Shown: in pieces, positions 675 through 16,848 of the stretch
How positions within the stretch are numbered: position 1 is the stretch's first letter
How the letters are laid out: every line of letters begins with the position of its first letter
DNA from: an uncultured archaeon
Lineage (GTDB): Archaea; Asgardarchaeota; Heimdallarchaeia; Heimdallarchaeales; Heimdallarchaeaceae
Length of the DNA stretch: 17,622 bases
Assembly (NCBI GenBank): GCA_964549075.1
Contig: CAZJUB010000002.1
Coordinates: 1 to 17,622 of the forward strand
Reading direction: 5' to 3'
Made by a program: the position numbers and the translations under genes
The notes under the pieces: model-generated
The model's database searches: none
Seen by the model: the letters and a program-made list of their open reading frames with translations, nothing else
What the model was told of the DNA's origin: nothing

Positions 675-1439
675 TTGGATAAAAACGAAAAAGAAAAAGG
701 CATGATTATTGCAGAATTCTTTAAGTTATTGGGGTATGAAACACTGTGCATAGATGAATTAAAGGAAGAAACTTTCCCTAAATTAAACAATATACAAGAT
801 GTTGATGTTGTAGCCTTTTCTTTTTCCACACAATCTCTTGTACTTATTGAACAAAAGAGAAAATTTGAGAAAAAGGATTACTATAAACTCAAAACACTGC
901 CTTTTATACTAAAGGTCTTTCCTTCTCTTGGAAAAGAACAACAATGGTTTGTTTCTTATTTAATTCTTGGTAAATGTGATGATAGTATTAAGAAGGATTT
1001 TACAATTATGGAAAAAGACATCAAACTCATTTTCTGGGAATTAGAGGAATTTATAAACAAATTTAGATATTTCTTAAATTTAGAATCTAAGGATTTTATA
1101 TCTCCTCAGCCCAACAAAAGAAAAATTGAAGATGTAATTGATAAAGAAACAGGAACAGAGCGAGGTATAACTGTTGAGTTAATCGATGAGAGTTACACCT
1201 CCAAGTGCAGTTTCTTGGATAATGAGCTGCCTCATAAACATTCAACTTATGTTGGTAAAAGAATCAAGCGAGGATTGTTCCGCTCTCATCAAGGGTATTT
1301 GATTAATGCTGATGTGAATGCAGCTTATAACATCCTCCTTAAAAGCGATCCGCAAGTACTTCCTCCTAGAAGTGTGGGCGGGGTAGGAGGGTATGTGATG
1401 TACCCTCTTAGAGTGAGCTATCAAGCAATGATACTCTAA
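675..1439 (+). CDS. Chimeric ORF: N-terminal restriction-endonuclease-fold (Mrr-like PD-(D/E)xK) domain fused to a TnpB C-terminal fragment
   Basis: N-part: IIAEFFKLLGYET ... QDVDVVAF ... LVLIEQKRK (D...ExK pattern). C-part from 1158: ERGITVELIDESYTSKCS ... GKRIKRGLFRS ... INADVNAAYNIL. The start is uncertain because the frame is open from 564. Confidence 0.6.
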   Translation: MDKNEKEKGMIIAEFFKLLGYETLCIDELKEETFPKLNNIQDVDVVAFSFSTQSLVLIEQKRKFEKKDYYKLKTLPFILKVFPSLGKEQQWFVSYLILGKCDDSIKKDFTIMEKDIKLIFWELEEFINKFRYFLNLESKDFISPQPNKRKIEDVIDKETGTERGITVELIDESYTSKCSFLDNELPHKHSTYVGKRIKRGLFRSHQGYLINADVNAAYNILLKSDPQVLPPRSVGGVGGYVMYPLRVSYQAMIL

Positions 1440-4929: not shown

Positions 4930-6201
4930 ATGAGTGAAGAAAAATCTCCTGAAAAAAAAGAAGAAAAAATAGTAAGACAGCCTGTTGTTAACATTGGTAC
5001 AATTGGTCATGTAGATAATGGTAAATCTACACTAGTACAAGCGCTCACTGGCAAATTTCCAGACGATCATTCAGAGGAGCTAAAACGAGGTATTTCTATC
5101 CGATTAGGCTATGCTGATACCGATTTCCGTAAATGTCCGAAATGCCCAGAACCAGATGCTTATACAATTGAGAAGATTTGTCCCAAATGTGGAACACCTA
5201 CAGAATTTCTCAGGAGAGTTTCCTTTGTAGATTGCCCCGGACATGAAGTATTAATGGCAACTTTACTCTCTGGTGCAACACTTATGAACGGTGCAATATT
5301 GCTTGTTGCTGCAAATTCAAGATGCCCACAACCGCAAACAAGAGAACATCTTGCAGCAATGGAGATTCTTCAAATTCCAAACATAGTAATCGCTCAAAAT
5401 AAAATTGAATTAGTAACTGAAGAAGAAGCAAAGAGGAATTATGAAGAGATTAAAGCTTTCATCAAGGGAACAATAGCAGAAAATGCACCAATTATCCCGA
5501 TTAGTGCAATGCACAAAGCTAATCTAGATGTTTTAATCTGCGAAATTGAGAAGAATATTCCTACACCTAATTTTGATAAAGAAAGTCCTTTGGAAATGCA
5601 TGTTGCAAGATCATTTGATATAAATCGTCCAGGAACATCACCAGAAAGACTCAGAGGAGGAGCTCTTGGAGGAACAATAGTAAAAGGGAGGATTGCTAAA
5701 GGAGAAGACATAGAAATAGTACCTGGAATTGCAATTAAAAGGGGAAATAAAACCGTTTATACTCCAATCAAAACAAAAGCAATTAGTATAGCTATTGGAG
5801 AACAAGGACTTGTTGATGAAGCTCATTCTGGAGGATTGGTTTCAATAGGAACAGAATTAGATCCTGCATTTTTGAAAGCTGATAAAATGGCTGGTAACGT
5901 GGTTACATCACCAGATAACGCACCTCCAGTCCGAACAGAACTTTCTCTAACTGTCCGTCTTCTGGAATTTGTTGTAGGTTCAGAAGAAATTACGAAAGTA
6001 CAACCTTTAGCTCAAGGAGAAACTCTAATGTTAAATGTTGGAACTGCAAAAACAGCAGGTTCAATAACAGATATCAAAGGAGAAGATGTTACGATTAAGC
6101 TTAGTAGAGAAGTTGCAGCAAGCAATGGGAGTAAAGTAGCAATTTCAAGAAGAATTGCTGGACGCTTTCGTTTAATTGGTGTTGGTTCTATACAAGATTA
6201 G
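4930..6201 (+). CDS. eif2g: Translation initiation factor 2 subunit gamma (aIF2-gamma)
   Basis: QPVVNIGTIGHVDNGKST, HSEELKRGISIRLGY, CPKC..CPKC zinc ribbon, FVDCPGHE, QNKIE, VARSFDINRPG, AISRRIAGRFRLIG. Confidence 0.97.
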   Translation: MSEEKSPEKKEEKIVRQPVVNIGTIGHVDNGKSTLVQALTGKFPDDHSEELKRGISIRLGYADTDFRKCPKCPEPDAYTIEKICPKCGTPTEFLRRVSFVDCPGHEVLMATLLSGATLMNGAILLVAANSRCPQPQTREHLAAMEILQIPNIVIAQNKIELVTEEEAKRNYEEIKAFIKGTIAENAPIIPISAMHKANLDVLICEIEKNIPTPNFDKESPLEMHVARSFDINRPGTSPERLRGGALGGTIVKGRIAKGEDIEIVPGIAIKRGNKTVYTPIKTKAISIAIGEQGLVDEAHSGGLVSIGTELDPAFLKADKMAGNVVTSPDNAPPVRTELSLTVRLLEFVVGSEEITKVQPLAQGETLMLNVGTAKTAGSITDIKGEDVTIKLSREVAASNGSKVAISRRIAGRFRLIGVGSIQD

Positions 6202-6218
6202 ATAATGAGGAGGTTCTA

Positions 6219-6605
6219 ATGCTCATCATTCTTGATACAAGCATGTTAATGCTTCCTCTTGAGAAGAGAATTAATTTATCTTCAGAAATAGAGCGAATCA
6301 TACCTAAATCTCATAAAATCGTTGTTCCCAAAATTGTTTTAAAGGAATTAATTGAACTTCTAGAAAGTTCAAGCAGTGTAACTACAAGAAAAGCGAATTT
6401 TGCTCTTAATCTATCAAAAAATTTTACTATTATAGACTCTCAGGAAGAAATTCATACCGATGAGGAAATTATACGTTTAGCATTGGAACATAATGCTATT
6501 GTAGCGACCAATGATAAGAAACTAAGGTTAAGGCTTAGAGAGAAAGGAATTGCTGTTATTTCCATGCATGGAAAAAACAGATTATCACTTTTCGGATATA
6601 TTTAG
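6219..6605 (+). CDS. PIN-domain ribonuclease, Fcf1/Utp24-like rRNA-processing family
   Basis: IILDTS, VLKEL, TDEEI, VATNDKKLR acidic tetrad. SD GAGGAGG. Usual neighbour of eif2g. Confidence 0.88.
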   Translation: MLIILDTSMLMLPLEKRINLSSEIERIIPKSHKIVVPKIVLKELIELLESSSSVTTRKANFALNLSKNFTIIDSQEEIHTDEEIIRLALEHNAIVATNDKKLRLRLREKGIAVISMHGKNRLSLFGYI

Positions 6606-6701
6606 TGTATACATCATCACATATAGAAAATAATATATGGTTTTGAAATTGAGGTACAATTAACAATCTAATTATCTTGATTGAAAACTTAATGGGGTAA
6701 A

Positions 6702-7268
6702 ATGATGGAGATTATAAGTTTATTTCCAGAACTCAATGAAATTGAGCATGATGAATTACGAGAAAAAGTTGCTAAATCCCTTGAGAAAGCAATAAACTTA
6801 GGGGATTGGTCTGATGAAGACTTCAAATATTTACCAGCTACATTGTTAATTCCCAAATTAATATCAGAAAACCAAGAAGCACAAATTACTTTAGTAGATC
6901 ATATTAGAGCTGTTACTCAAATGTGTATTGCCACCTATGAGACATATTCAAATCTAGGTTTAGGAGATAAGTTAAACAGAGATGAATTAATTGCTGGTGC
7001 TTTGCTTCATGATGTTGGTAAGTTCACAGAATATAGAAAAGATTCATCCGGAAAAATTATTCAAACTTTTGAAGGGAAGCGAATTCGTCATCCAGCTATG
7101 GGATTAGAAATTGTTGCAGAATTTAACCTTCCAATTATTGTAAGACAAGCGATTGTTTTTCACAGTAAAGAAGGTGATAAGATTGATAGATTACCAGAAG
7201 TAGATATAATTCATCGCGTTGATTTCCTTTGCTTTTCCCCCATACAGAAAATGTTTGAAGAAAATTGA
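6702..7268 (+). CDS. HD-superfamily (HDIG-type) metal-dependent phosphohydrolase
   Basis: LVDHIRAV ... GALLHDVGK ... IRHPAMG ... IVFHS ... HRVDF (H..HD..H..H..D). Confidence 0.88.
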   Translation: MMEIISLFPELNEIEHDELREKVAKSLEKAINLGDWSDEDFKYLPATLLIPKLISENQEAQITLVDHIRAVTQMCIATYETYSNLGLGDKLNRDELIAGALLHDVGKFTEYRKDSSGKIIQTFEGKRIRHPAMGLEIVAEFNLPIIVRQAIVFHSKEGDKIDRLPEVDIIHRVDFLCFSPIQKMFEEN

Positions 7269-7292
7269 AGTAGATAGTAAAAGGTGTACATA

Positions 7293-8420
7293 ATGAAGAA
7301 ATACAAAATCGCAGTTTTACCAGGAGATGGCATTGGAAAAGAAGTCACAGATGCGGCAATGAAAGTTCTAGATGCTGTTGGATTTAGTGAAATAGCTGAG
7401 TATACTTACGGAGATATTGGTTGGGAATTTTGGTGTAAAGAAGGTAATGCACTCCCGGATAGAACAATTGAATTGTTGAAGAACTCAGATTGTTGCTTAT
7501 TCTCTGCAATAACATCGAAACCAAAAGAAGAAGCAGCAAAAGAACTTATTCCAGAATTACAAGGAAAAGGACTTGTTTATTTTAGTCCTATTGTAAAATT
7601 AAGACAATTGTTTGATTTATATGTAAACTTGCGTCCATGCAAAGCTTATCCAGGTAATCCGATTAACTTTCGAGATGATATCGATTTAGTAGTTTTCAGA
7701 GAAAATACTGAAGGTCTTTATGTTGGTGTTGAATGGTACCCAGTTCCAGAAGAAGTAATGAAAACAATTGTAAAAAATCACCCGAAAGCTCAAAGATTCG
7801 CAGATGTAAAACTTGAAGATATTGCGATATCTACACGTATTTTCACTCGAGAAGGAGTACAACGAATTCTAAAGGCGAGTATGGATTATGCAAAAGAATT
7901 TGGTTATCCCACGGTTACTGTTGTAGAGAAACCTAATGTTATAAGAGAAACTAGCGGTTTAATGGTAAGAGAAGCACGAAAATTGATACAAGAATATGAA
8001 GGAATAGAATTGTGGGAAACAAATATCGACGCTATGGCGATGTGGCTTGTAAAAAATCCTCAGAACTATAGTGTTTTAGTCTCTTCAAATATGTTTGGTG
8101 ATATTATTTCTGATTTAGCTGCCCAGTTAGTAGGAGGACTAGGCTTCGCTTGCTCTGGAAATATTGGTAAGGATTTTGCAGTCTTTGAACCTACACACGG
8201 ATCTGCACCAAAATATATGGGAATGAACAAGGTCAATCCGATAGCTCAAATTTTAGCAGCAAAGATGATGCTGGACTGGTTAGGTGAAAAAGAAAAAGCG
8301 AAGAAAATTGAAGATGCTGTTGCAGCAGTCATTGCAGAAGGAAAATATCGTACCTATGATATGGGAGGTAATACAACTACTTCAGAGATGGCAGATGCAA
8401 TTTGCAATAAAATTAACTAA
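7293..8420 (+). CDS. Beta-decarboxylating dehydrogenase (isocitrate/homoisocitrate/isopropylmalate family), NADP-type signature
   Basis: LPGDGIGKEV, SPIVKLRQLFDLYVNLRP, RENTEGLY, EKPNV, NMFGDIISDL, FEPTHGSAPKY. ATG 7293 is preferred over GTG 7284 because AAGGTG forms its SD. Confidence 0.92.
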   Translation: MKKYKIAVLPGDGIGKEVTDAAMKVLDAVGFSEIAEYTYGDIGWEFWCKEGNALPDRTIELLKNSDCCLFSAITSKPKEEAAKELIPELQGKGLVYFSPIVKLRQLFDLYVNLRPCKAYPGNPINFRDDIDLVVFRENTEGLYVGVEWYPVPEEVMKTIVKNHPKAQRFADVKLEDIAISTRIFTREGVQRILKASMDYAKEFGYPTVTVVEKPNVIRETSGLMVREARKLIQEYEGIELWETNIDAMAMWLVKNPQNYSVLVSSNMFGDIISDLAAQLVGGLGFACSGNIGKDFAVFEPTHGSAPKYMGMNKVNPIAQILAAKMMLDWLGEKEKAKKIEDAVAAVIAEGKYRTYDMGGNTTTSEMADAICNKIN

Positions 8421-8501
8421 GACAAAAATAAAGGAATCACTTGTTATAATCATAAAGAGATATCCTTATTACCATCTTTTTTATGGAACAAATTGACATA
8501 A

Positions 8502-9767
8502 ATGAATGGGTTTACATTTATAGAAAAAATCATCAAATCTCACTCTGATGCCTCTGTAGAAGAAATTTATCCTGGTAATATAGTATGGATAAATTTAGAT
8601 TTAGTGACAGCGAGAGATTATGCAGGTCCTCAAGTTGTAGATTTGTTTCAAAACAACTATCCTGGTTCTAAAGTGTTTGATAATCAAAAAATTATTTTTA
8701 CACCAGATTGTTATCCTTATGGCAATGATCCCAAGCATGCAATAGATCAAGAAAAAATACGTTTTTTTGCAAAAGAGCATAATATTAAAGTTACTGACTT
8801 AGGGTCTGGTATAGGTTCTCATCTTATATTTAGAAGAGGATTTGCAAAACCGGGGGATATTGCTTTTGGTGCTGACAGTCACTATAATATTCTTGGAGCA
8901 CTAGGTATATTGGGTCAAGGTGCTGGAGATGTAATGTTAGCTTTTTCTATGAAAACAGGTAAATCATGGATCAAGATTCCTGAAACAATAAAAGTGAACT
9001 TGAAAGGAAAATATGTTTGGCCCACATCTTCTAAAGATTTGGCACTTTATGTTCTTAAGAAACTACATGAATTTGGTATTACAGGAAAAGCTATAGAATT
9101 TTATGGAGAGATTATTTCCGAATTATCAATAGAAGAGAGAGTAACGCTCTGTTCTCTAATAACTGAAGCATCAGGAATGATTGGGTTTGTTCTTCCTGAC
9201 AAGATAACTAAAGAATATTATGAAAGATTAGGGATTGAAATTGAAATTTTTTCAGCTGATAAAAATGCTAATTATTCAGAGGAAATAACAATTGATATTG
9301 ATAATTTAGGATTATATATTGCATGTCCACCTCACCCTCATAATGTCAAACCTATCGAAGAGGTTTTAGGAACGCCTATAAGCTCAATTGTTGTTGGTTC
9401 ATGCACTAATGGTAGTGCATCAGACATTCATGAAGTAGCAAAAGTTCTTGAAGGTAAGAAAATAAACACTGAGGTTCGATTTGGAATTGTACCTGCTACA
9501 AGAGAAGATTTCATTGATATAAATGCAAATAGAGATATGACAATAATTTTAGAAGCTGGAGGGAATTTTTTTGGTGCTGGTTGTTCAACTTGTGCAAAAG
9601 GACAATATGGCTTAACAGGAGGAGAAACAGCAGTTACTTTAACTACAGGTAATAGAAATACTCAAGGGAAAATAGGTCCAGCAGATGTTTATTTGGCAAG
9701 TCCAGCAGTAGCTGCAGCTACTGCTATAGAAGGTAAGATAGCAAGACCTAGAGTAGGTGAAGAATAG
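8502..9767 (+). CDS. Aconitase-family (LeuC/HacA-like) large subunit, divergent active site
   Basis: GADSH, GSCTNG, GCSTC (three 4Fe-4S Cys), NRN, YLASPAVAAATAIEG. Atypical TARD and TPDC motifs. Confidence 0.9.
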   Translation: MNGFTFIEKIIKSHSDASVEEIYPGNIVWINLDLVTARDYAGPQVVDLFQNNYPGSKVFDNQKIIFTPDCYPYGNDPKHAIDQEKIRFFAKEHNIKVTDLGSGIGSHLIFRRGFAKPGDIAFGADSHYNILGALGILGQGAGDVMLAFSMKTGKSWIKIPETIKVNLKGKYVWPTSSKDLALYVLKKLHEFGITGKAIEFYGEIISELSIEERVTLCSLITEASGMIGFVLPDKITKEYYERLGIEIEIFSADKNANYSEEITIDIDNLGLYIACPPHPHNVKPIEEVLGTPISSIVVGSCTNGSASDIHEVAKVLEGKKINTEVRFGIVPATREDFIDINANRDMTIILEAGGNFFGAGCSTCAKGQYGLTGGETAVTLTTGNRNTQGKIGPADVYLASPAVAAATAIEGKIARPRVGEE

Positions 9768-10273
9768 TGACAGAGGAAATTATAAGAGGCAAAGCTAAAT
9801 TAGTTCGAATCGACGATATTGATACCGACCAAATTTTCCATCAATCTCTATTAACTATACATAAACCTGAAGAGATTAAACCTCATATCTTCGGTAATTT
9901 AGAAGGTTTCGAGAATTTTGGAAAGGAAAATAATTCTAATAAAATTCTAGTAGTTGGAAAGAATTTTGGGAAGGGTTCCACTAGACAACAAGCAGTAACA
10001 GGATTTTTAGCACACAAAATCAAAGCCATTGTCGGAGAATCATTTGGTCCAATATATTATAGCAACGCTGTAAATGAAGGATTACTCCTTATTGAAGTTC
10101 CCAATCTTTCTGGATTTGAAATAGAATCTGACGATGAATTAGAGATTGATATTGGTCAATCTGTTATCTTCAACAAAACCAAAGGTATTAAAATAAAATG
10201 TAATAAAATTCCACAGCCTGTTTTAGATATTATAAATGCTGGAGGTCTATTAAAACTTGGAGGAAAATTTTAA
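9767..10273 (+). CDS. Aconitase-family (LeuD/HacB-like) small subunit
   Basis: DDIDTDQIF, VVGKNFGKGSTRQQA, SFGPIYYSNAVNEGL, IINAGGLL. GTG start overlaps the upstream TAG. SD AGGTGA. Confidence 0.9.
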   Translation: MTEEIIRGKAKLVRIDDIDTDQIFHQSLLTIHKPEEIKPHIFGNLEGFENFGKENNSNKILVVGKNFGKGSTRQQAVTGFLAHKIKAIVGESFGPIYYSNAVNEGLLLIEVPNLSGFEIESDDELEIDIGQSVIFNKTKGIKIKCNKIPQPVLDIINAGGLLKLGGKF

Positions 10274-10285
10274 GGAGGTTTAATT

Positions 10286-12139
10286 ATGGTAGGAAAAACA
10301 TTTTCAGAAAAATTGTTCTCACTTAAGTCAGAATCAGATGTTAGAGCAGGAGCGATTGTCTATGCAGAACCAGATTTAATTCTCTCGCACGACAACTCAG
10401 CTTCAATTCTAAAAACATTTCAAAAAATGGGAGGAACAGAGATTAAATTTCCTAAAAGATTGGTTATTGTACTTGACCATGATTCACCACCGACTAATGT
10501 ACAATTGGCTAATGATCATAAAACTATCAGAGAGTTAGTAAGTAAGTACAAAATCGATAATTTCTATGATGAAGGGAGAGGTATATGTCACCAACTCATG
10601 TCTAACCACGCTCTACCAAACATGTTAATCGTTGGTTCCGATTCTCACACCTGTACAAGTGGAGCGTTTGCTACTTTTGCTGCTGGAATAGATAGAACAG
10701 AAACTGCGGGATTATGGTTAACAGGAAAGACATGGTTCAGAGTTCCTGAAACCATTAAAGTCGTTTTAACAGGTAAACTGTCTGCTGGAGTTTACGCAAA
10801 AGACATAGCTCTTTGGTTAATGAATAAAATTGGTGCATCTGGTGCGACTTATCAAGCCATTGAATTTCATGGGGATGGTGTAAAAACACTATCCATTTCA
10901 GAGAGGATGACTCTCGCTAACCTCGCATCAGAAATGGGAGCGAAAACAGCTATTTTCCCTGCTGATGAAATATTATTAAAATGGCTAAAAGAGAAACATG
11001 GAAAGCAGGAAATTCTTGATGTAGAAGGTCTAATATGGTCGGACGAAGATGCAGCTTTCAGTTTTGAAGTATCGCTACAACTAGACCTTCTAGAACCACT
11101 TGTTGCCATACCACATCAAGTTGATACTGTAGAATATGTAAAGAATCTAAAAAAAACTAATATTCAACAAGCGTTTTTAGGCACTTGTACGAATGCTAGG
11201 TTAGACGATTTGGAAATAGCTGCTTCAATTTTGAAAAATAAAAAAATAAAGAAAGGAGTACCATTACTAGTTGCTCCAGCATCGGCAGAGATTTATCTAC
11301 AGGCATTGAGGAAGGGGATAATTGAGGTTTTAGTAGAAGCTGGAGCTACAATTCTTTCCTGTAGTTGTGGTCCATGTCTTGGAAAGGGACAGGGAATACC
11401 AGCAGATGGTTGGAATGTAATATCAACTGCAAATAGAAATTTCTTAGGAAGAATGGGAAATAAAAATTCTTTTGTTTTCTTAGCATCGCCAGCTACTGTC
11501 GCTGCTTCAGCAATAGAAGGAAGAATCGTGGACCCTAGACAACAAATGTCAATACCCATTAGAAGAGACGAGAAATCAGTTGAATTGAATTACAGAGAGG
11601 TTGAAACAAAAACTCTTACAATAGATCCTTCTGATAACAGATATAAGTACAATGTTTGGGATTATAGAGATGTTAATGATTTTAATACTGACCAAATGTT
11701 TGCTGGGGGATTAACTTATGATATAAAATCCTCAGAAGGAGAAAAGATTGTACCACATTTGTTCAAAGGCTTAGATGAAACATTTTCATCAAGGGTAAAA
11801 CAAGGTGATATTATAGTAGGTGGGGAGAATTTCGGATGCGGATCATCAAGAGAACATCCAGCTGTAGGTCTTGCTTTTGCTGGTATAAAAGCGGTTATTG
11901 TAAAATCAGTTGCAAGGATATTTTACAGGTCAGCAATTAATCAAGGATTACCTATTATAGTTCACCCTGAATTTGTAGAGAATTATAATCCAGACAATCC
12001 AGTCAACATTGATTTAGAGAAAGGTACAATTACGAATGGTGATCGAACATTTACTTTTCCTAAACTCCCAAAAGAATTACTTAAAATATTCAACGCGGGA
12101 GGTTTAATCAGATACTATCAGCAACTTTATTCATCTTAG
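10286..12139 (+). CDS. Fused LeuC-LeuD type aconitase/homoaconitase-family hydratase
   Basis: SHDN, LDHD, GICHQ, GSDSHT, GTCTN, CGPC, STANRNFLGRMG, then swivel domain NTDQMF, NFGCGSSREHPA. SD AAGGAGG. Confidence 0.92.
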   Translation: MVGKTFSEKLFSLKSESDVRAGAIVYAEPDLILSHDNSASILKTFQKMGGTEIKFPKRLVIVLDHDSPPTNVQLANDHKTIRELVSKYKIDNFYDEGRGICHQLMSNHALPNMLIVGSDSHTCTSGAFATFAAGIDRTETAGLWLTGKTWFRVPETIKVVLTGKLSAGVYAKDIALWLMNKIGASGATYQAIEFHGDGVKTLSISERMTLANLASEMGAKTAIFPADEILLKWLKEKHGKQEILDVEGLIWSDEDAAFSFEVSLQLDLLEPLVAIPHQVDTVEYVKNLKKTNIQQAFLGTCTNARLDDLEIAASILKNKKIKKGVPLLVAPASAEIYLQALRKGIIEVLVEAGATILSCSCGPCLGKGQGIPADGWNVISTANRNFLGRMGNKNSFVFLASPATVAASAIEGRIVDPRQQMSIPIRRDEKSVELNYREVETKTLTIDPSDNRYKYNVWDYRDVNDFNTDQMFAGGLTYDIKSSEGEKIVPHLFKGLDETFSSRVKQGDIIVGGENFGCGSSREHPAVGLAFAGIKAVIVKSVARIFYRSAINQGLPIIVHPEFVENYNPDNPVNIDLEKGTITNGDRTFTFPKLPKELLKIFNAGGLIRYYQQLYSS

Positions 12140-12151
12140 AAGTGTGTAAAT

Positions 12152-13459
12152 ATGAAATTATATGAATATGAAGCTAAACAGATTTTTGAGAAATTCGGTT
12201 TAATAATCCCTAAGCAATTAGCTATAATTGAAAAAACTGAGGAGATTAATGATTTGGTATTATCGTTTCCTCTAATGATAAAGGCAATGGTATTAATTGG
12301 AGGACGTGGCAAAGCTGGGGGAATTAAGAAAGCTAAAGATTTAGAGGATACTAAGAAAATAGTTGGAGAAATGTTTCAAAGCTCAATCCGTGGTTATCCA
12401 ATTAAAAAGATACTTTTGGAAGAGACTGTAAATATATCAAAAGAAATTTACTTAGCTGTGACAACCGACCCAGCTACATTTGACATAGTCTTAGTTACTT
12501 CTGCAAGTGGAGGAGTGGATATTGAGGAAGTAGCAAAAACTACACCTGAACTTATTTGGAAACAAAAAATCCTTGATAATGCAGAAGAATTAGATGATAT
12601 TACTGCTGAAGAAGCAATCAAATTTCTTTCGAAGAACTTACCAACTGACGAGCATATTACCAATCAACTAAAAGATGCTATAAAAAACCTATATTTAACA
12701 TTTCAAAGTATCGAGGCTAAGATTTGTGAAATTAACCCTTTGATTCTTACTACAAATCATCAGATAGTTGCTGTTGATGCAAAAGTGGTACTTGATGATA
12801 ATAGTTTATACAGACAAGAACCTATGTTGAAATCAATAGGTATTGATCCTCGAAGTAAAAGACACGATGTTTCAGAGCAGACCGTTTATGAAGCAAAAGC
12901 GTACAAAATTGGATTTCCTTACTTAGATTTACTCAAAAATCCTGAGAACTTCAAAAAAGATGAAAGTAAATTATATGTAGCACTTGTACCTGGAGGAGCT
13001 GGATATGGGATTTTCTCAATAGATGAAGTAGTCAATGTGGGTAACAGATTTTTTGATGGAAAAGTAGTTCCCATAAATTTTATGGATAGTGGAGGTGGAC
13101 CATCATTAAGTAAAGTTGCGGATATGTTTCATCTACTAATGGATCACCCTGCTACTGATTTAATCATTACAAGCAGATTTGGAGGTATTTCCAGCTGTGA
13201 TATTTTCATTCGCGGATTAATCATGGCTTTAAGAGACAGATACATGAAAAAACGCAGGATGATCCCAGTTTATGGTAGAATGGTTGGCACTGATTTAGCA
13301 GCAGCAAGAGAATATCTTGAAAAAGCGAAACGAGAAACGCCTGATCCTTTGAAAGATTTACATATTGTTGTAGGAAATCAAAAAATTATGGCAGATGTCA
13401 TCAAAGATAGTATTGAATATGGCTTTAAAATAAAACAGCAGCAGGAGACTGGAGGATAG
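12152..13459 (+). CDS. ATP-grasp acyl-CoA synthetase beta-type subunit (SCS-beta / citryl-CoA synthetase large / ACL-beta-like)
   Basis: MKLYEYEAK, IKAMVLIGGRGKAGGIK, EINPL, DAKVVLDDN, GGAG, PINFMDSGGG, FGGISSCD. Confidence 0.88.
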   Translation: MKLYEYEAKQIFEKFGLIIPKQLAIIEKTEEINDLVLSFPLMIKAMVLIGGRGKAGGIKKAKDLEDTKKIVGEMFQSSIRGYPIKKILLEETVNISKEIYLAVTTDPATFDIVLVTSASGGVDIEEVAKTTPELIWKQKILDNAEELDDITAEEAIKFLSKNLPTDEHITNQLKDAIKNLYLTFQSIEAKICEINPLILTTNHQIVAVDAKVVLDDNSLYRQEPMLKSIGIDPRSKRHDVSEQTVYEAKAYKIGFPYLDLLKNPENFKKDESKLYVALVPGGAGYGIFSIDEVVNVGNRFFDGKVVPINFMDSGGGPSLSKVADMFHLLMDHPATDLIITSRFGGISSCDIFIRGLIMALRDRYMKKRRMIPVYGRMVGTDLAAAREYLEKAKRETPDPLKDLHIVVGNQKIMADVIKDSIEYGFKIKQQQETGG

Positions 13460-13463
13460 TTTC

Positions 13464-15608
13464 ATGACAAGCGTAAAACTTGAAGCAGATAAAGGTTTAC
13501 TCAACTATCTTATAAATCATGTAAGACCAGAATTAGCAGAAAAAATAAACAAATCTAAATCAATTGAAACTATGATTGTTGGATTAGGAAGACAGGGAAC
13601 CAGACACGCTCAGTTGATGATGGAGTATGGTACGAATGTAACTTGTGGTGTAGCACCTGGTAGAGGTGGAACAATGGTTCATGAAACAATACCTGTATAT
13701 AATTCAGCTCATGAAGCTGTAAAAAAACATCCAAACATCGCAGTTGCTAGTATTTGGAGACATTATTCTACTGCCAAGGATGCAACAATTGAAGTTATAA
13801 GAGCAGGTGTTCCAATTGTTGTTCTCATCTCTGAATTCATCCCACTTAAGGATGTAAGAGATATTTTAGTAGAGGCACGAAAACATAACACTATCTTGTT
13901 TGGAGGTAACACTCCTGGAATAATTTTCCCTCCCGAAGGTATAAAGGTTGGTATGCTTCCAGATATTTTTCAAGCACAAATTATGGAAAACGGAGAAACT
14001 GGACCTAATGGCGTCACTATCTTGTCAAGAAGTGGTGCAATATTATATCACATGTCTGATGCACTTGCAAGTGCTGGAATTGCACAAAATGGAGTATTAG
14101 GAATAGGTGGGGACGGTGCTATAGGTTCAAGATTTGTAGATTTAGTTTCATTGGTTATGAAATATTCAAATACAGATTTGGTGGTTGTAGCAGGTGAAAT
14201 CGGAGGAATGCAAGAAGAGCTTCTTGCTCAAGATATGATCGAACATCCAGAGAGGTATTCAAAACCGCTTGTTGCACTCATTTCTGGAGCAAATGCTCCT
14301 GAAGGAAAAACAATGGGACATGCAGGAGCGGTTATAGCTCCAGGACAGATGTATGGTACTTTCAATTCTAAGAAAGAGATATTAGAAAAAGCTGGAGCAA
14401 TCGTTGTAAATCACCAAAACGATTTAATTCAAGCTGTAAAATCCAAACTTAATCGAACATACTTTAAAGTTGAAGATTATTATCAGAGAATGAAAAAGAA
14501 ATGGGACGAAAAACCTCCTGAACCCACTTGGGGAACTCTGATTACCAATGTTATGCCTAATAATTTAATTATTCGAGGATATCCTTTACAGGAAATCATT
14601 GCAAAAAAAGGCTTATTAGAAACAACTTATCTTCTAATTGAAGGTGAATTTCCAAAAGAAAACTTGAAAGAGCTAGAGAAAATAGCTATTGTAGCAGCTA
14701 AAGAACAACTTTCTATTAATTATAAATTCTCAAAAGAGACAGACATTTCAAAATTAATTGGCACATTTCTTTTACTAGATGAGAATTTATCGAACTATGC
14801 TCAGGTAGAAAAAGATCATTCAAAGGTTGCAGTTTATTCTTTAGGTAGGATTCTGAGATATCTTTCAATTTACTTCGGTAACACACAAAAAATAGATACA
14901 CAAGATGAAGAAAAGATAACTTTCTCTGAATTAATATATCTAGGATTGGTTGGAGAAATACCTAGCGATAAAATAAAAATCAAACTTCTTGAAGCTATCA
15001 TTACCGCATGTGTAGACCATGGTGTTACACCTCCATCAACACAGACAACACTAATATTAGCTTCAACTCGCTCAAATTATGAAGTAGCTGTTTCAGCAGG
15101 TATCCAAGCTATAACTGATGTCCATGGTGGGGCAGGTCAAAAAGCAGCTGAATTTATGATTTCAGCAGTTAATAAATCCAGAGAAAATTCCAAGGATTTA
15201 GAAGAGACAACCTTTGAGTTGATGAAAGATACTATCAAAGCAGGAAAACGTGTTGAAGGGCTTGGTCATAGGATTCACACCCAAGATCCTAGAAGAGATG
15301 TTCTTTGGGATTTAGCTGAGAAAGCTGGATATGCAAAAGAATGTGTTGCAGTTTCAAAAGTTATAAGTGATGCGTTTTACAGGGTTAGAGGAATGAACCT
15401 TCCCATAAATGTAGACGGTGTAATTGGAGCGATTATAGCTGATATGGATATAAATCCTAAATTAGCTAAAGCTGTATTTGTCTTTGGAAGAGTTGCTGGA
15501 TTAGCTGCGCATTATTATGAAGAGATTAGTACTCAACCTCAAATGAGAAGAATTGAGTTTAATAATGCAGTCTATAAAGGACCATCTATAAGAGAACTTA
15601 GAGAGTAA
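13464..15608 (+). CDS. Fusion of SCS-alpha-like CoA-ligase domain and citryl-CoA-lyase/citrate-synthase domain (ATP citrate lyase alpha-like architecture)
   Basis: N-half: GRQGTRHAQLMMEYGTNV, SRSGA, GIGGD, GEIGG, phospho-His loop KTMGHAGA. C-half: LIIRGYPL, VDHGVTPPST, HGGAG, GLGHRIHTQDPR, PINVDG, GRVAGLAAH. SD GGAGG. Confidence 0.9.
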   Translation: MTSVKLEADKGLLNYLINHVRPELAEKINKSKSIETMIVGLGRQGTRHAQLMMEYGTNVTCGVAPGRGGTMVHETIPVYNSAHEAVKKHPNIAVASIWRHYSTAKDATIEVIRAGVPIVVLISEFIPLKDVRDILVEARKHNTILFGGNTPGIIFPPEGIKVGMLPDIFQAQIMENGETGPNGVTILSRSGAILYHMSDALASAGIAQNGVLGIGGDGAIGSRFVDLVSLVMKYSNTDLVVVAGEIGGMQEELLAQDMIEHPERYSKPLVALISGANAPEGKTMGHAGAVIAPGQMYGTFNSKKEILEKAGAIVVNHQNDLIQAVKSKLNRTYFKVEDYYQRMKKKWDEKPPEPTWGTLITNVMPNNLIIRGYPLQEIIAKKGLLETTYLLIEGEFPKENLKELEKIAIVAAKEQLSINYKFSKETDISKLIGTFLLLDENLSNYAQVEKDHSKVAVYSLGRILRYLSIYFGNTQKIDTQDEEKITFSELIYLGLVGEIPSDKIKIKLLEAIITACVDHGVTPPSTQTTLILASTRSNYEVAVSAGIQAITDVHGGAGQKAAEFMISAVNKSRENSKDLEETTFELMKDTIKAGKRVEGLGHRIHTQDPRRDVLWDLAEKAGYAKECVAVSKVISDAFYRVRGMNLPINVDGVIGAIIADMDINPKLAKAVFVFGRVAGLAAHYYEEISTQPQMRRIEFNNAVYKGPSIRELRE

Positions 15609-15624
15609 ATATCAATCAATCTCA

Positions 15625-16431
15625 ATGGAGAGAATCATGAAAGATATAATCTATGAGATTATTGGCAATATTCTTATTGTGAGGGATATCGTTGAAGAAT
15701 CAAAACTATTAGAGTTCTCTAAAAAAATGATGAAGAAGTACCCAAGCATTCAAACGGTAGTTATCCAAACTTCCAACGTAAGAGGAGTTGAAAGAACAAG
15801 AGAATTTCAATATTATATGGGAAAGAACACATTTGAAACACTGTATAAAGAGTATGGAAATACATTTCTTGTTAATATATCAACATCTTTTTTCTCACCA
15901 AGATTAAGTTATGAGAGAGAAAGAATCGCTAAAATGGTTAAGAAGGGGGAGATTGTTTTAAATTTCTTTTCCGGAGTTGGACCATTCAGCATATCCATTG
16001 CTACAAAATGTAACAATTGTATTATTCATAGTATAGAAATAAATGAAAATGCATATCATTATCTCCTGAAAAATATAGAACTGAACAAATGTAAAGAAAA
16101 GGTCAAAGCGTATCTAGGAGATGCTTTTGATATTGTACCAAAATTATTTTTTAACAAAGTAGATAGAGTATTGCTCCCTCTTCCTCTTGCAGCAGAACAT
16201 GCTCTTCCTCTAGCTTATCACTCTTTGAAACAAGGAAAGGGCATTATTCACTGGCAAATAACAGAAAAAGTTCATGAAAAAGAAATAACGCTTAAAGAAA
16301 TTAAGCAAAGCATACAAGAAATCTTAGAAAAGAACCATATCGATGCTTCGTTTCATGTTGAGACTCTGAAGAAAATAAGATGGGTAGCTCCAAGAATAGC
16401 TCATAAAGCAATTGACCTAGTTTTTAACTAA
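15625..16431 (+). CDS. Trm5/Taw2 (Met-10+) family class I SAM-dependent tRNA-37 modifying enzyme
   Basis: YEIIGNILI, VRGVERTR, TLYKEYGNTF, FFSPRLSYERERI, FSGVGPFSI, IEINENAY, DRVLLPLP. 268 aa, no N-terminal D1 domain. Trm5 versus Taw2 activity not resolvable. Confidence 0.85.
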   Translation: MERIMKDIIYEIIGNILIVRDIVEESKLLEFSKKMMKKYPSIQTVVIQTSNVRGVERTREFQYYMGKNTFETLYKEYGNTFLVNISTSFFSPRLSYERERIAKMVKKGEIVLNFFSGVGPFSISIATKCNNCIIHSIEINENAYHYLLKNIELNKCKEKVKAYLGDAFDIVPKLFFNKVDRVLLPLPLAAEHALPLAYHSLKQGKGIIHWQITEKVHEKEITLKEIKQSIQEILEKNHIDASFHVETLKKIRWVAPRIAHKAIDLVFN

Positions 16432-16848
16432 TTTGAAATTACTTGCATAATCTGCTATTTTTAATAATTGGGAGTATTTTGTTTCTCCTGTTAGCACAAT
16501 CTCCGTTTTCTTATTTTTATCTAAAATTATGTCAATGAATTTTTCTAAACTCAATAAATTATTTTCGATAAGCAAATCAAAGTTAGCTGCTAGTAACATC
16601 GATTTTTCCGAAAATATAATATTCTTTTTTACTGCATCCAAAATAGCTTTATAATGAGACAAATCATAGATAACAACATCTAGGTTATTTAATAGGGTCA
16701 AATTTGAGAGCCAAGAAAATGAGTCATTTATCAGAATAGCTCGAATCTTTAATGATTGTCCTTTAGCTCTTATTATTGCACCTAAACCAGCTCGAAAAGA
16801 AGAATATCTATCTCCATAGTAATAATGAATAAGAAAAGCTTCATTCAT
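16417..16848 (-). CDS. Degenerate CobO/BtuR cob(I)alamin adenosyltransferase-like protein
   Basis: LIHYYYG..AGLGAIIRAKGQSLKI and TEIVLTG..LLKIADYAS match the CobO termini, but the GxGKGKTT P-loop is replaced by GDRYSSFR. Confidence 0.6.
   Translation of the reverse strand: MNEAFLIHYYYGDRYSSFRAGLGAIIRAKGQSLKIRAILINDSFSWLSNLTLLNNLDVVIYDLSHYKAILDAVKKNIIFSEKSMLLAANFDLLIENNLLSLEKFIDIILDKNKKTEIVLTGETKYSQLLKIADYASNFKLVKN

Follow-up and report, generated by a model that had tools for sequence, protein, structure and literature searches.

What pathway is encoded by seven adjacent genes that the source annotation names as isopropylmalate dehydrogenase and dehydratase and succinyl-CoA synthetase? The genes lie at positions 6702..15608 of the window (the whole stretch of 17,622 nt that was analysed), in an 89.7% complete genome of an uncultured archaeon of the Heimdallarchaeaceae. 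The initial annotation, made from the sequence alone, had claimed that automated naming would scatter a tricarboxylate module at this place, and the source names bear this out. The ORF listing matches its description exactly: seven ORFs on the + strand, with intergenic gaps of 15, 81, -1, 12, 12 and 4 nt (Table 1), the start of the LeuD-like gene overlapping the preceding LeuC stop by 1 nt. The domain content assigned at that time was recovered in profile searches for all seven genes. SD-like purine motifs, said to precede most of them, are located 5-8 nt upstream of five of the seven starts: GGGGT at the HD gene, GGTG at IDHl (before ATG 7293, the likelier start, which gives 375 aa), GGTGA at the LeuD-like gene, GGAGGT at AcnF and GGAGGA at AclA; no obvious motif precedes the starts at 8502 and 12152. 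The co-directional run exceeds the cluster, comprising aIF2-gamma, PIN, the seven genes and a Trm5/Taw-like gene (4930-16431). Profile scans of 19 window ORFs returned no matches to the LeuA/HMGL, Aminotran_4 or LysW-type families, in agreement with the reported lack of a LeuA/LysS-type synthase, a branched-chain aminotransferase and a lysW-type gene in the window.

Table 1. Genes of the cluster in window coordinates
Gene product	Position	Strand	Profile matches
HD-domain metalloprotein, 188 aa, first cluster gene	6702..7268	+	Pfam HD, HDIG domain
IDHl, Iso_dh-family beta-decarboxylating dehydrogenase, 378 aa	7284..8420	+	Pfam Iso_dh 305 bits
LeuC-like large subunit, clade 'a' (LeuC-a), 421 aa	8502..9767	+	Pfam Aconitase
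LeuD-like small subunit, clade 'a', 168 aa	9767..10273	+	Aconitase_C
AcnF, fused LeuC+LeuD-type hydratase, clade 'b', 617 aa	10286..12139	+	Aconitase+Aconitase_C
AclB, SucC-like ATP-grasp ligase subunit, 435 aa	12152..13459	+	ATP-grasp_2, Ligase_CoA
AclA, SucD-like domain fused to citrate-synthase/citryl-CoA-lyase-like domain, 714 aa	13464..15608	+	CoA_binding+Ligase_CoA+Citrate_synt

Conservation of the cluster

The cluster is confirmed as real, and its conservation is far beyond chance: among 25 loci retrieved from species genomes, 21 show all seven genes in this order, three are truncated at a contig end and L023 is unrelated. Within Heimdallarchaeaceae the distribution of the module is all-or-none: AcnF, IDHl and LeuC-a are each present in 26 of 30 genomes and all missing in the other four (G013, G015, G016 and G017), with AclA or CS-family matches in 25/30. 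In a metagenome scan the same genes again formed an operon, on contigs with proteins that the sources label Aminicenantes and Anaerolineae. The bacterial order is SucC-like, SucD-like, citryl-CoA lyase (CCL), HD, LeuCD-b, IDHl, LeuCD-a, and the flanks are housekeeping genes (TsaB, RimI, pseudouridine synthase). SucC-like, SucD-like, HD, LeuC-b, IDHl and LeuC-a occur together in half of the metagenome loci with full flanks (12/24), and the SucC-like/SucD-like/CCL triple in 27 of 80 loci. The ligase alpha subunits of the bacterial operons and the N-domain of fused AclA form separate supported clades (100/99 and 100/100), both among SucD-like sequences in a tree whose backbone is unresolved. The cluster had been taken for one functional module, whose conservation was to be sought across archaea and anaerobic bacteria; both the order in the fetched loci and the recurrence of the whole set in distant bacteria agree with this.

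Properties of the encoded proteins

The GHAGA phosphohistidine motif of AclA aligns with that of SCS-alpha, and the Citrate_synt match spans profile positions 12-352 of 357, a full-length domain. This C-terminal domain is closest to the citryl-CoA lyase of H. thermophilus (130 bits) and keeps all CS/CCL catalytic and oxaloacetate-binding motifs (HGGA, GHR, DPR, NVD, GR..G..H). AclA lies narrowly under the CCL cut-offs (215 vs 245; 206 vs 212). Its counterpart in the bacterial locus L092 is above the NCBIfam citryl-CoA-lyase cut-offs (278 vs 212; 253 vs 245), and the ligase beta subunit there is above that of Pfam Citrate_bind (35.2 vs 26.8). The window AclB gives no Citrate_bind match in the Pfam profile scan, and no member of the window set passes the NCBIfam equivalog cut-offs for aconitase, IDH, ACL or CCL; both results count against a citrate substrate. 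AclB reaches 58.6 for Citrate_synth_N (cut-off 83), and scores 159 bits with SCS-beta, 83 with the CCS large subunit and 46 with ACL-beta among solved structures. It adjoins AclA in 15 of 16 distant Asgard loci, and in one locus (L031 of genome G064) the AclBA pair stands beside a CitF-like citrate CoA-transferase gene.

The canonical catalytic motifs are intact in AcnF, which exceeds subfamily cut-offs (PRK00402, 494 vs 385; hacA_fam, 489 vs 385.7) and no NCBIfam equivalog cut-off. Its closest solved structure is the homoaconitase large subunit of M. jannaschii (361 bits, against 337 for IPM isomerase), and orthologues in other lineages are split, with 47-52% identity. Both clade-a subunits score under every NCBIfam cut-off. 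LeuC-a retains the three Fe-S cysteines and the DSH and NRN motifs, while the His of the catalytic D-H pair is changed to Cys, H-D to R-D, the Asn258 equivalent to Ser and G-R to G-K in all six clade-a sequences aligned. The clade-a LeuD has GSTRQQ in place of the usual GSSREH/Q and a specificity loop L-L-T-I. One aconitase suffices for citrate and LeuC-a is without the catalytic His, so that a citrate substrate leaves the second hydratase and the HD protein unexplained; two hydratases that would each take one half-reaction fit the data.

IDHl reaches no NCBIfam cut-off (best AksF2, 331 vs 540), and its closest solved structure is the homoisocitrate dehydrogenase of Thermus (227 bits). It has an S-P-I-V-x-L-R motif versus S-x-N in canonical IDH; the Asn115 equivalent is Ile, the equivalent of TtHICDH Arg85 is Val and the next Lys is not conserved. 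As judged from the alignment, Ile and Val are an IPMDH-like hydrophobic pattern, unlike canonical isocitrate dehydrogenase, which also speaks against citrate.

The HD protein displays invariant H67, H103-D104, H130, H154 and D174 in 11 orthologues. Its AF2 model has a pLDDT of 92.8, and the YhaM HD domain is the only Foldseek match with E<=0.001. The gene adjoins module genes in Heimdallarchaeaceae, in family f28, in the Asgard genome G066 and in the bacterial operons. Our guess is that the protein, if it has a role here, may help to maintain the metal or Fe-S centres of the hydratases.

A proposed non-canonical citrate branch

Profile searches and local tblastn of the source genome gave no Aconitase, Iso_dh or Citrate_synt matches outside the cluster, in which IDHl and AclA are the sole members of the latter two families, and the same holds for G011 (95% completeness). 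The initial annotation had suggested looking for separate copies of the textbook genes: canonical SucCD is present on contig C3 and there are 8 POR_N matches, but no separate icd/acn, LeuA, LysX or DapA was found. That no other pathway using the products is visible favours the citrate reading below. The genome also carries two GDH-family genes.

We infer that the operon joins an ATP-coupled, reversible interconversion of citrate with oxaloacetate and acetyl-CoA to LeuBCD-type enzymes linking citrate and 2-oxoglutarate, a reading to which we assign a probability of roughly 0.5. AclB and AclA would constitute an ATP-citrate-lyase-like enzyme with a "CCS small subunit + CCL fused" architecture. 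The SCS-like ligase would convert citrate, ATP and CoA to citryl-CoA, ADP and Pi via phosphohistidine, and the fused citrate-synthase-like domain would interconvert citryl-CoA with oxaloacetate and acetyl-CoA. PMC13147460 gives a dG'm of -8.0 +/- 0.8 kJ/mol for ACL cleavage versus +38.8 for citrate synthase. As the overall reaction would be close to equilibrium, either direction is possible: citrate cleavage, or citrate synthesis with the thioester conserved as ATP. AcnF, probably with assistance from the divergent LeuCD-a pair, would turn citrate into isocitrate by way of cis-aconitate, IDHl, which resembles LeuB and HICDH, would link isocitrate and 2-oxoglutarate, and the two GDH-family enzymes could connect the latter to glutamate. 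Since this unusual set recurs as an operon in sediment bacteria that are only distantly related, it probably represents a form of the central-metabolic route between citrate and 2-oxoglutarate that has so far gone unrecognised; a search of the literature found no description of such an operon. If citrate is indeed the substrate, the operon is a self-contained non-canonical citrate branch.

A citrate/2-oxoglutarate arm was among the routes first proposed and is strengthened by the lyase motifs, the bacterial scores and the sole-copy genes; the lead example, homocitrate, is weakened by the lack of LysX and DapA. In that series the same operon and chemistry would lengthen or shorten 2-oxoacid chains in a reversible, ATP-coupled manner, as in 2-oxoglutarate + acetyl-CoA <-> homocitryl-CoA <-> homocitrate <-> cis-homoaconitate <-> homoisocitrate <-> 2-oxoadipate. 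A synthase of the LeuA/AksA type would be dispensable, its place being taken by the ligase/lyase, and the two hydratases would divide the half-reactions or the chain lengths between them. Homocitrate in fungi and Thermus needs two hydratases. The nearest relatives of AcnF and IDHl and the missing isocitrate-type Asn point the same way, as does the failure to find an HMGL synthase in any of the 30 family genomes or in G066. The latter genome possesses the HD/IDHl/LeuCD-a/LeuCD-b module as well as a complete canonical citrate set (a type-I ACL + IDH + 639-aa aconitase cluster, an AcnA-like gene and two citrate synthases), an arrangement that favours homocitrate over citrate. We nevertheless consider the series unlikely. 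LysX and DapA were not found in the source genome and the eight genus relatives searched, so 2-oxoadipate has no visible use, and across the 80 metagenome loci the operon has no recurrent aminotransferase or LysW-type neighbour. The lyase domain keeps its oxaloacetate-type motifs, the bacterial lyase and ligase exceed the citryl-CoA-lyase and Citrate_bind cut-offs, respectively, and the genome would be left without any route from citrate despite a citrate-lyase-like enzyme.

Equally doubtful is a composite cluster, in which AclBA is a citrate/citryl-CoA enzyme and an older HD/IDHl/LeuCD-a/LeuCD-b module has a substrate of its own, a malate substituted at position 2 or 3, with shared regulation or a shared product (oxaloacetate, acetyl-CoA) as the only link between them. 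Many Heimdallarchaeia carry the module but not AclBA: LeuC-a occurs in 17/22 genomes of family f5 and 11/12 of f7, the IDHl-like gene in 16/22 and 11/12, and fused AclA in only about 10 and 5. Three f7 genomes (G082, G089 and G090, 69-86% complete) carry the module with neither CS-family nor HMGL genes found, contrary to the citrate reading, and in G066 more than 1.6 Mb separate the module from AclBA. A systematically altered LeuC-a active site and an HD partner that matches no citrate-branch step would suit such a composite too. Against it, tight operons that combine the module with ligase/lyase genes of two different clades are seen in no fewer than three distant lineages (Heimdallarchaeaceae and the Aminicenantes- and Anaerolineae-named contigs), IDHl directly adjoins AclB-AclA in f28, Heimdallarchaeaceae have or lack all parts together, and the citrate enzyme of the source genome would lead nowhere without the module.

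Ordinary leuB/leuCD genes of leucine/isoleucine synthesis beside a sucCD-like pair, each with its textbook substrate, are suggested by the source names, by the slightly better score of LeuC-a with the IPM isomerase of M. jannaschii than with its homoaconitase (230 vs 214 bits) and by KARI-like genes in 8 of 24 genus relatives, but are highly improbable: no LeuA/CimA-type gene was found in the 30 family genomes, every LeuB/LeuC/LeuD equivalog cut-off is missed, a canonical SucCD exists elsewhere, AclA bears a citrate-synthase-like domain that is never present in SucD, no HMGL or KARI gene was found in the 80 metagenome loci, and the KARI-like genes of G033 and G066 lie outside ilv operons. No true KARI was found in the source genome, which may reflect its incompleteness given these relatives.

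Comparison with known systems

Two-enzyme dehydration/rehydration systems comprise aconitase with homoaconitase in fungi and Thermus, and PrpD or AcnD/PrpF with AcnB for 2-methylcitrate. As in these, two different hydratases are encoded for a formally single isomerisation; unlike them, both are of LeuCD type by sequence, one without the catalytic His.

Type I ACL (AclAB of Chlorobium and Methanothrix; human ACLY) has the same overall reaction as that proposed for AclBA and the same parts: an ATP-grasp subunit, a CoA-binding/ligase domain with phosphohistidine and a citrate-synthase-homology domain. It differs in that the window AclB is without a Citrate_bind match and below the Citrate_synth_N cut-off. 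Identity to the type-I ACL of G066, which has both enzymes, is only 24-28%, and the type-I sequence occupies a very long separate branch of the tree.

CCS/CCL and type II ACL cleave citrate in the manner proposed for AclBA, with ATP and in two steps, through an SCS-like ligase and a CS-family lyase. Type II ACL, as described, also fuses a SucD-like part to the lyase in one polypeptide (PMC5459899, PMC6783814), and the solved CCL of H. thermophilus is nearest to the AclA C-domain. By contrast, the scores place the window ligase parts closer to true succinyl-CoA synthetase than to CCS or ACL, the lyase is a full-length citrate-synthase-like domain versus the roughly 260-aa CCL, and the descriptions of both known systems mention no operon shared with LeuBCD-like genes.

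Methanogen HacAB (homoaconitase), AksF and LeuCD/LeuB are the nearest sequences to AcnF and IDHl, and their chemistry, isomerisation of a 2-substituted to a 3-substituted malate followed by oxidative decarboxylation, is that expected of the window enzymes. The window set differs from them in the missed equivalog cut-offs, in the absence of an AksA/LeuA-type synthase partner, in the fusion of large and small subunits in AcnF, and in having an active-site-altered second LeuCD pair and an HD protein as constant partners.

Organization of the cluster

The analysis shows that an ATP-dependent acyl-CoA ligase, a citrate synthase-family lyase, two LeuCD-type hydratases, a LeuB/HICDH-type dehydrogenase and an HD protein form a single conserved functional unit. 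The initial annotation had proposed seven same-strand ORFs, and all seven appear in the ORF listing with exactly the boundaries proposed. They are spaced by 15, 81, -1, 12, 12 and 4 nt, and an SD-like motif lies upstream of five of the seven starts. The only long gap within the cluster is rich in A and T and includes a run of T, and the start that follows it lacks an SD-like motif; a putative internal promoter may lie there. None of the cluster's proteins reaches an NCBIfam equivalog cut-off, and AcnF alone among them reaches subfamily cut-offs (PRK00402, hacA_fam).

Features of the window and of compared loci; cluster genes were assigned by domain search
Feature	Location	Strand	Description
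TnpB-like ORF	window 675-1439	+	254 aa; the sole match is to TNB, the C-terminal domain in TnpB/Cas12f-like proteins (331-388 of 389 profile positions)
HD protein	window 6702..7268	+	cluster gene 1
IDHl	window 7284..8420	+	Iso_dh-family dehydrogenase
long gap	window 8421-8501		81 nt
LeuC-a	window 8502-9767	+	LeuC/LeuD-like split pair, first gene
LeuD-a	window 9767..10273	+	LeuC/LeuD-like split pair, second gene
AcnF	window 10286..12139	+	LeuC+LeuD-like fusion
AclB	window 12152..13459	+	SucC-like ATP-grasp protein
AclA	window 13464..15608	+	714 aa; SucD-like part joined to full-length citrate-synthase-like domain
CobA/BtuR-like ORF	window 16417-16848	-	143 aa; spans just profile positions 80-157 of 172
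oxidoreductase and CitF-like genes	L031:4738-8902 (G064)		indolepyruvate-type 2-oxoacid:ferredoxin oxidoreductase pair and CitF-like gene, convergent with AclBA
KARI-like genes	L051:8818-11031 (G066)		two in tandem
KARI-like gene	L050:8584-9672 (G033)
ligase pair and HMGL-like gene	L023:8834-12135 (Armatimonadota MAG)		SucC/SucD-like pair, then directly HMGL-like gene
citrate synthase fusion	L047:2435-4279 (G066)	-	614 aa; full citrate synthase joined to PTAC/PduL phosphate acyltransferase domain

The window has a GC content of ~34%, and its proteins find their best matches in MAGs named at source as Heimdallarchaeota/Heimdallarchaeaceae. Domain search identifies archaeal genes for ribosomal protein S24e, RpoE', aIF2-gamma and a GTP-dependent dephospho-CoA kinase-like protein. 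Near the window ends, the TnpB-like ORF has the look of an IS200/605 TnpB remnant cut short, and the CobA/BtuR-like ORF is a corrinoid adenosyltransferase-like gene that is either naturally short or truncated.

Conservation in Asgard archaea

With AclA as the query, 25 loci were retrieved from species genomes, and 21 of them have the full seven-gene order; three of the other four end at a contig edge and one (L023) is unrelated. The seven genes are kept together in L008, L013 and L016 despite different flanking genes. Orthologues of AcnF, IDHl and LeuC-a each occur in 26 of the 30 genomes of the family Heimdallarchaeaceae, and the three are jointly absent from G013, G015, G016 and G017; two of these four genomes are closed. 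The Armatimonadota locus L023 was rejected as a holder of the module, which it does not contain, having been retrieved via SucD similarity alone. It represents another pairing of a ligase with a Claisen enzyme, in this case of the LeuA-type fold.

All Aconitase, Iso_dh and Citrate_synt matches in the source genome, which is 89.7% complete, belong to the cluster, and local tblastn with Asgard canonical aconitase, isocitrate dehydrogenase (IDH), citrate synthase (CS), type-I ATP-citrate lyase (ACL), HMGL and KARI queries finds nothing beyond it. Searches of this genome and of all 30 family genomes found no HMGL-like gene (LeuA/CimA/homocitrate synthase), and no true KARI was found in the source genome at this completeness. 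No DapA (PF00701) and no LysX (TIGR02144) over cut-off turned up in the source genome or in eight genus relatives; the search set for the two comprised the source genome and 12 relatives, none with LysX over cut-off. The source genome also encodes a canonical SucCD pair, eight POR_N matches and two GDH-family genes. KARI-like genes, considered as a marker of branched-chain synthesis, occur in 8 of 24 genus genomes. The KARI-like genes of L051 and L050, the two loci inspected, lie beside HAD, SDR and unrelated genes, with no ilv operon, and in genomes without LeuA.

Fused AclA, full-length or fragmentary, occurs in ~45 of the 400 Asgard genomes searched, and AclB adjoins it in 15 of 16 distant Asgard loci. 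In family f28, IDHl (77–79% identity) directly adjoins AclB-AclA, the HD-LeuC-a-LeuD-a group is found 2–12 kb from IDHl-AclB-AclA, and AcnF is absent. The closed genome G066 of family f5 has a single locus with HD-IDHl (54% identity) and two divergently arranged LeuCD pairs, with AclBA located apart from it. This genome has no HMGL gene, and it also has a canonical cluster of type-I ACL, IDH and a 639-aa aconitase, an AcnA-like gene and two citrate synthases. Since G066 holds both type-I ACL and AclBA, the two systems are not simple alternatives; the loci concerned are L046 for the type-I cluster and L032 for the SCS-like/CS-like fused AclBA. LeuC-a and IDHl-like genes occur widely in families f5 and f7 with or without AclA, and three f7 genomes that carry them (G082, G089 and G090, 69–86% complete) give no CS-family match and no HMGL match. 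A citrate synthase fusion is encoded in G066 (L047), and open frames of 615–625 aa with a full CS match are present in seven other f5 genomes (G057, G059-G062, G065 and G076).

At L031 (G064), the neighbours of AclBA include a 2-oxoacid:ferredoxin oxidoreductase and a gene for a CitF-like citrate CoA-transferase. ORF sizes and positions at L033 (G074) equal those of L031, a likeness by ORF layout alone.

Operons in bacterial metagenome contigs

Scanning metagenomes with an alignment of clade-a LeuC gave 598 candidate stretches, 557 of which encoded a relative, and 80 loci were kept. The gene set of the window recurs there in tight operons, which run in the order SucC-like, SucD-like, citryl-CoA lyase (CCL), HD, LeuC-b, LeuD-b, IDHl, LeuC-a, LeuD-a, LeuC-b and LeuD-b being the split counterparts of AcnF; a second gene order is also seen. 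Both ligase subunits (beta and alpha), HD, LeuC-b, IDHl and LeuC-a occur together in 12 of the 24 loci with full flanks (at least 7 kb upstream and at least 4.5 kb downstream), in part in five and not at all in seven. The triple of two ligase genes and CCL is found in 27 of the 80 loci, and LeuC-a is directly preceded by IDHl in 38 of the 61 with room for it. Neither an HMGL nor a KARI gene was seen in any of the 80 loci. As many of these are close kin, they amount to about five independent arrangements, not dozens. Exact-sequence look-up names two operon types, Aminicenantes and Anaerolineae/Chloroflexi, and fused AclA itself recurs (54% identity) in a protein named at source as Aminicenantales. 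For comparison with the Magnetococcus type II ACL genes, no sequence named Magnetococcus was among the search matches. TsaB, RimI and pseudouridine synthase genes recur downstream, and all extra genes recurring beside the bacterial operons belong to housekeeping or unrelated families.

When alpha-type ligase domains are placed in a tree, the N-terminal domains of fused AclA form one long-stemmed clade (support 100/100) and the operon SucD-like proteins another (100/99). Both fall among SucD-like sequences on a backbone without resolution, with type-I ACL distant. The module is thus linked with two distinct ligase lineages.

Structural relatives and catalytic residues

Among solved structures, the N-terminal part of AclA is closest to succinyl-CoA synthetase (SCS) alpha (181 bits), followed by the small subunit of citryl-CoA synthetase (CCS; 109 bits) and ACL alpha (102 bits). 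AclB gives the corresponding order of SCS beta (159 bits), CCS large subunit (83 bits) and ACL beta (46 bits). The C-terminal part of AclA, searched alone, is closest to the CCL of H. thermophilus (6hxp, 130 bits), with citrate synthases at 65 bits or less. AclA matches PF02629, PF00549 and PF00285, and the GHAGA of its N-terminal part aligns with the His loop (phosphohistidine) of SCS alpha. The C-terminal part retains HGGA, GHR, DPR, NVD and GR..G..H, the motifs that serve catalysis and oxaloacetate binding in citrate synthase.

AcnF is closest to the homoaconitase of M. jannaschii (361 bits, vs 337 for isopropylmalate isomerase) and keeps its three Fe-S cysteines as well as D-H, H and DSH, the catalytic residues. 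By its protein sequence, it is a mainstream LeuC/HacA-type enzyme. The split pair forms a separate clade, 'a', in which the three Fe-S cysteines, DSH and NRN are kept. In clade-a LeuC, Cys stands in place of the His in the catalytic D-H pair, R-D in place of the preceding H-D, Ser in place of the Asn258 equivalent and G-K in place of G-R. These replacements are common to all six aligned members, namely Asgard sequences plus one protein named Thermoplasmata and one named WOR-3. The LeuD-like specificity loops are poorly conserved and show neither the YLVY of solved isopropylmalate isomerase nor the YLRT of homoaconitase.

The closest solved structure to IDHl is the homoisocitrate dehydrogenase (HICDH) of Thermus. 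Its motif S-P-I-V-x-L-R compares with S-A-N-V-A-M-R in the canonical IDH of G066. Ser113 and Asn115 (E. coli numbering) are the gamma-carboxylate contacts of IDH; the IDH-type Ser is retained and the Asn position is Ile in all six aligned sequences of the clade. The position of the HICDH residue Arg85 (Thermus numbering) is Val in IDHl. The predicted pocket pattern is hydrophobic and IPMDH-like. The clade is highly conserved, with 73–88% identity among proteins labelled Heimdall, Kari, Hod, Thor or Bipolaricaulota. The HD protein falls in generic HD clusters alone in the Atlas, and its single Foldseek match at E<=0.001 is YhaM (TM 0.65).

Function of the module

The operon would most readily be read as a citrate branch, citrate <-> 2-oxoglutarate, with a probability of roughly 0.5. 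Citrate as the substrate is indicated by the lyase motifs together with the bacterial family assignments, by the CitF-like neighbour of AclBA, by the operon being self-contained, by the finding of no consumer of other 2-oxoacids in the genus, and by the lack of any other aconitase, IDH or citrate synthase in the source genome. ATP-yielding citrate synthesis by ACL is reported to occur in Desulfobacter. Cleavage of the ACL type lies near equilibrium (dG'm -8.0 kJ/mol in the excerpt of PMC13147460), so AclBA could work in either direction.

Four points count against a simple citrate reading and hold it at that level. These are the non-IDH-like pocket of IDHl, the crippled catalytic set of LeuC-a, the HD protein, which has no explained role in it, and the occurrence of the module in genomes with canonical citrate enzymes and in some without a synthase. 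A homologous elongation with a substrate other than citrate seems rather unlikely. Lysine synthesis via alpha-aminoadipate was rejected, with LysX over cut-off absent from the source genome and 12 relatives and DapA absent in the genus. The cluster could also be a composite of two functions, an explanation about as unlikely as the homologous elongation. That these are ordinary leu genes is highly improbable; a leu operon was rejected, with no HMGL gene found and all equivalog cut-offs missed.

Beyond the citrate branch, we tentatively entertain an unrecognised pathway, widespread in anaerobic sediment archaea and bacteria. An ATP-conserving ligase/lyase would drive 2-oxoacid extension (oxaloacetate -> 2-oxoglutarate, possibly -> 2-oxoadipate) instead of an irreversible citrate-synthase/LeuA-type synthase. 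Isomerisation would be split over two LeuCD-type Fe-S enzymes, clade a lacking the catalytic histidine, and a dimetal HD protein would supply an obligatory sixth activity. If real, such a pathway would show LeuBCD-type enzymes at work today in the roles of aconitase and IDH in central metabolism.

Published work already covers Asgard ACL-like genes, noted in the excerpt of bioRxiv 10.1101/2022.10.25.513756, and the idea of a 'type II' fusion. In the full-text literature searched, we find no description of the constant linkage of ligase/lyase, LeuBCD-like and HD genes, of the clade-a LeuC signature or of the cross-phylum operon. If the citrate reading is true, numerous anaerobes not yet cultured, among them Heimdall-group Asgard archaea, Aminicenantes and Anaerolineae, form or cleave citrate with an energy-conserving enzyme, and their steps from citrate to 2-oxoglutarate run on enzymes that pipelines label as leucine/lysine genes. 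Reconstructions would then wrongly report 'no aconitase/IDH, incomplete TCA' plus a 'partial leucine pathway'. The citrate reading also bears on the old recruitment hypothesis, which links this TCA branch with 2-oxoacid elongation pathways, and on the central carbon metabolism of the archaeal relatives of eukaryotes. Clade-a LeuCD and its HD partner constitute a well-defined conserved pair without known function.

Comparison with known systems

Neither hydratase belongs with aconitases of the AcnA/AcnB/PRK07229 type: the aconitate hydratase family cut-off (NF005558, 612) is missed by both AcnF (404) and LeuC-a (235). AcnF has the catalytic residues of the LeuC/HacA family and exceeds its subfamily cut-offs (PRK00402, 493.7 vs 385; TIGR01343, 488.9 vs 385.7), remaining under the equivalog ones (HacA_Meth, 424 vs 550; LEU2, 405 vs 611). 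LeuC-a, in contrast, departs from this family in residues and lies under all LeuC/HacA cut-offs (best PRK00402, 353 vs 385). Fusion of LeuCD/HacAB subunits into aconitase-like proteins is noted in general terms in the excerpt of PMC11237513. IDHl differs from isocitrate dehydrogenase in its residues and scores under all IDH equivalog cut-offs. It is likewise set apart from homoisocitrate and isopropylmalate dehydrogenases by the lack of the HICDH Arg85 and by its scores (AksF2, 331 vs 540; LEU3_arch, 311 vs 410; leuB, 224 vs 353).

The beta subunit of type I ACL combines PF24948 and PF16114, and both are matched strongly by the type-I AclB of G066. AclB of the cluster, by contrast, scores 58.6 bits against the ACL ATP-grasp domain PF24948, under the cut-off of 83, and gives no match to the citrate-binding domain PF16114 at E<=0.001. 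The parts of the type I alpha subunit, namely the CoA-binding domain, the CoA-ligase domain with phosphohistidine and the CS-homology domain with catalytic Asp, are all found in AclA. In the bacterial operon L092, the ligase beta subunit is over the Pfam Citrate_bind cut-off, and its CCL passes the curated NCBIfam CCL cut-offs (277.7 vs 212; 252.9 vs 245), whereas AclA falls below them (NF004866, 214.9 vs 245; NF004869, 206.4 vs 212). AclB and AclA have the architecture of CCS/CCL and of the postulated type II ACL, a SucCD-like ligase with a CS-family lyase, and AclA fits the description of 'type II ACL' as ccsB fused to ccl in the excerpts of PMC5459899 and PMC6783814.
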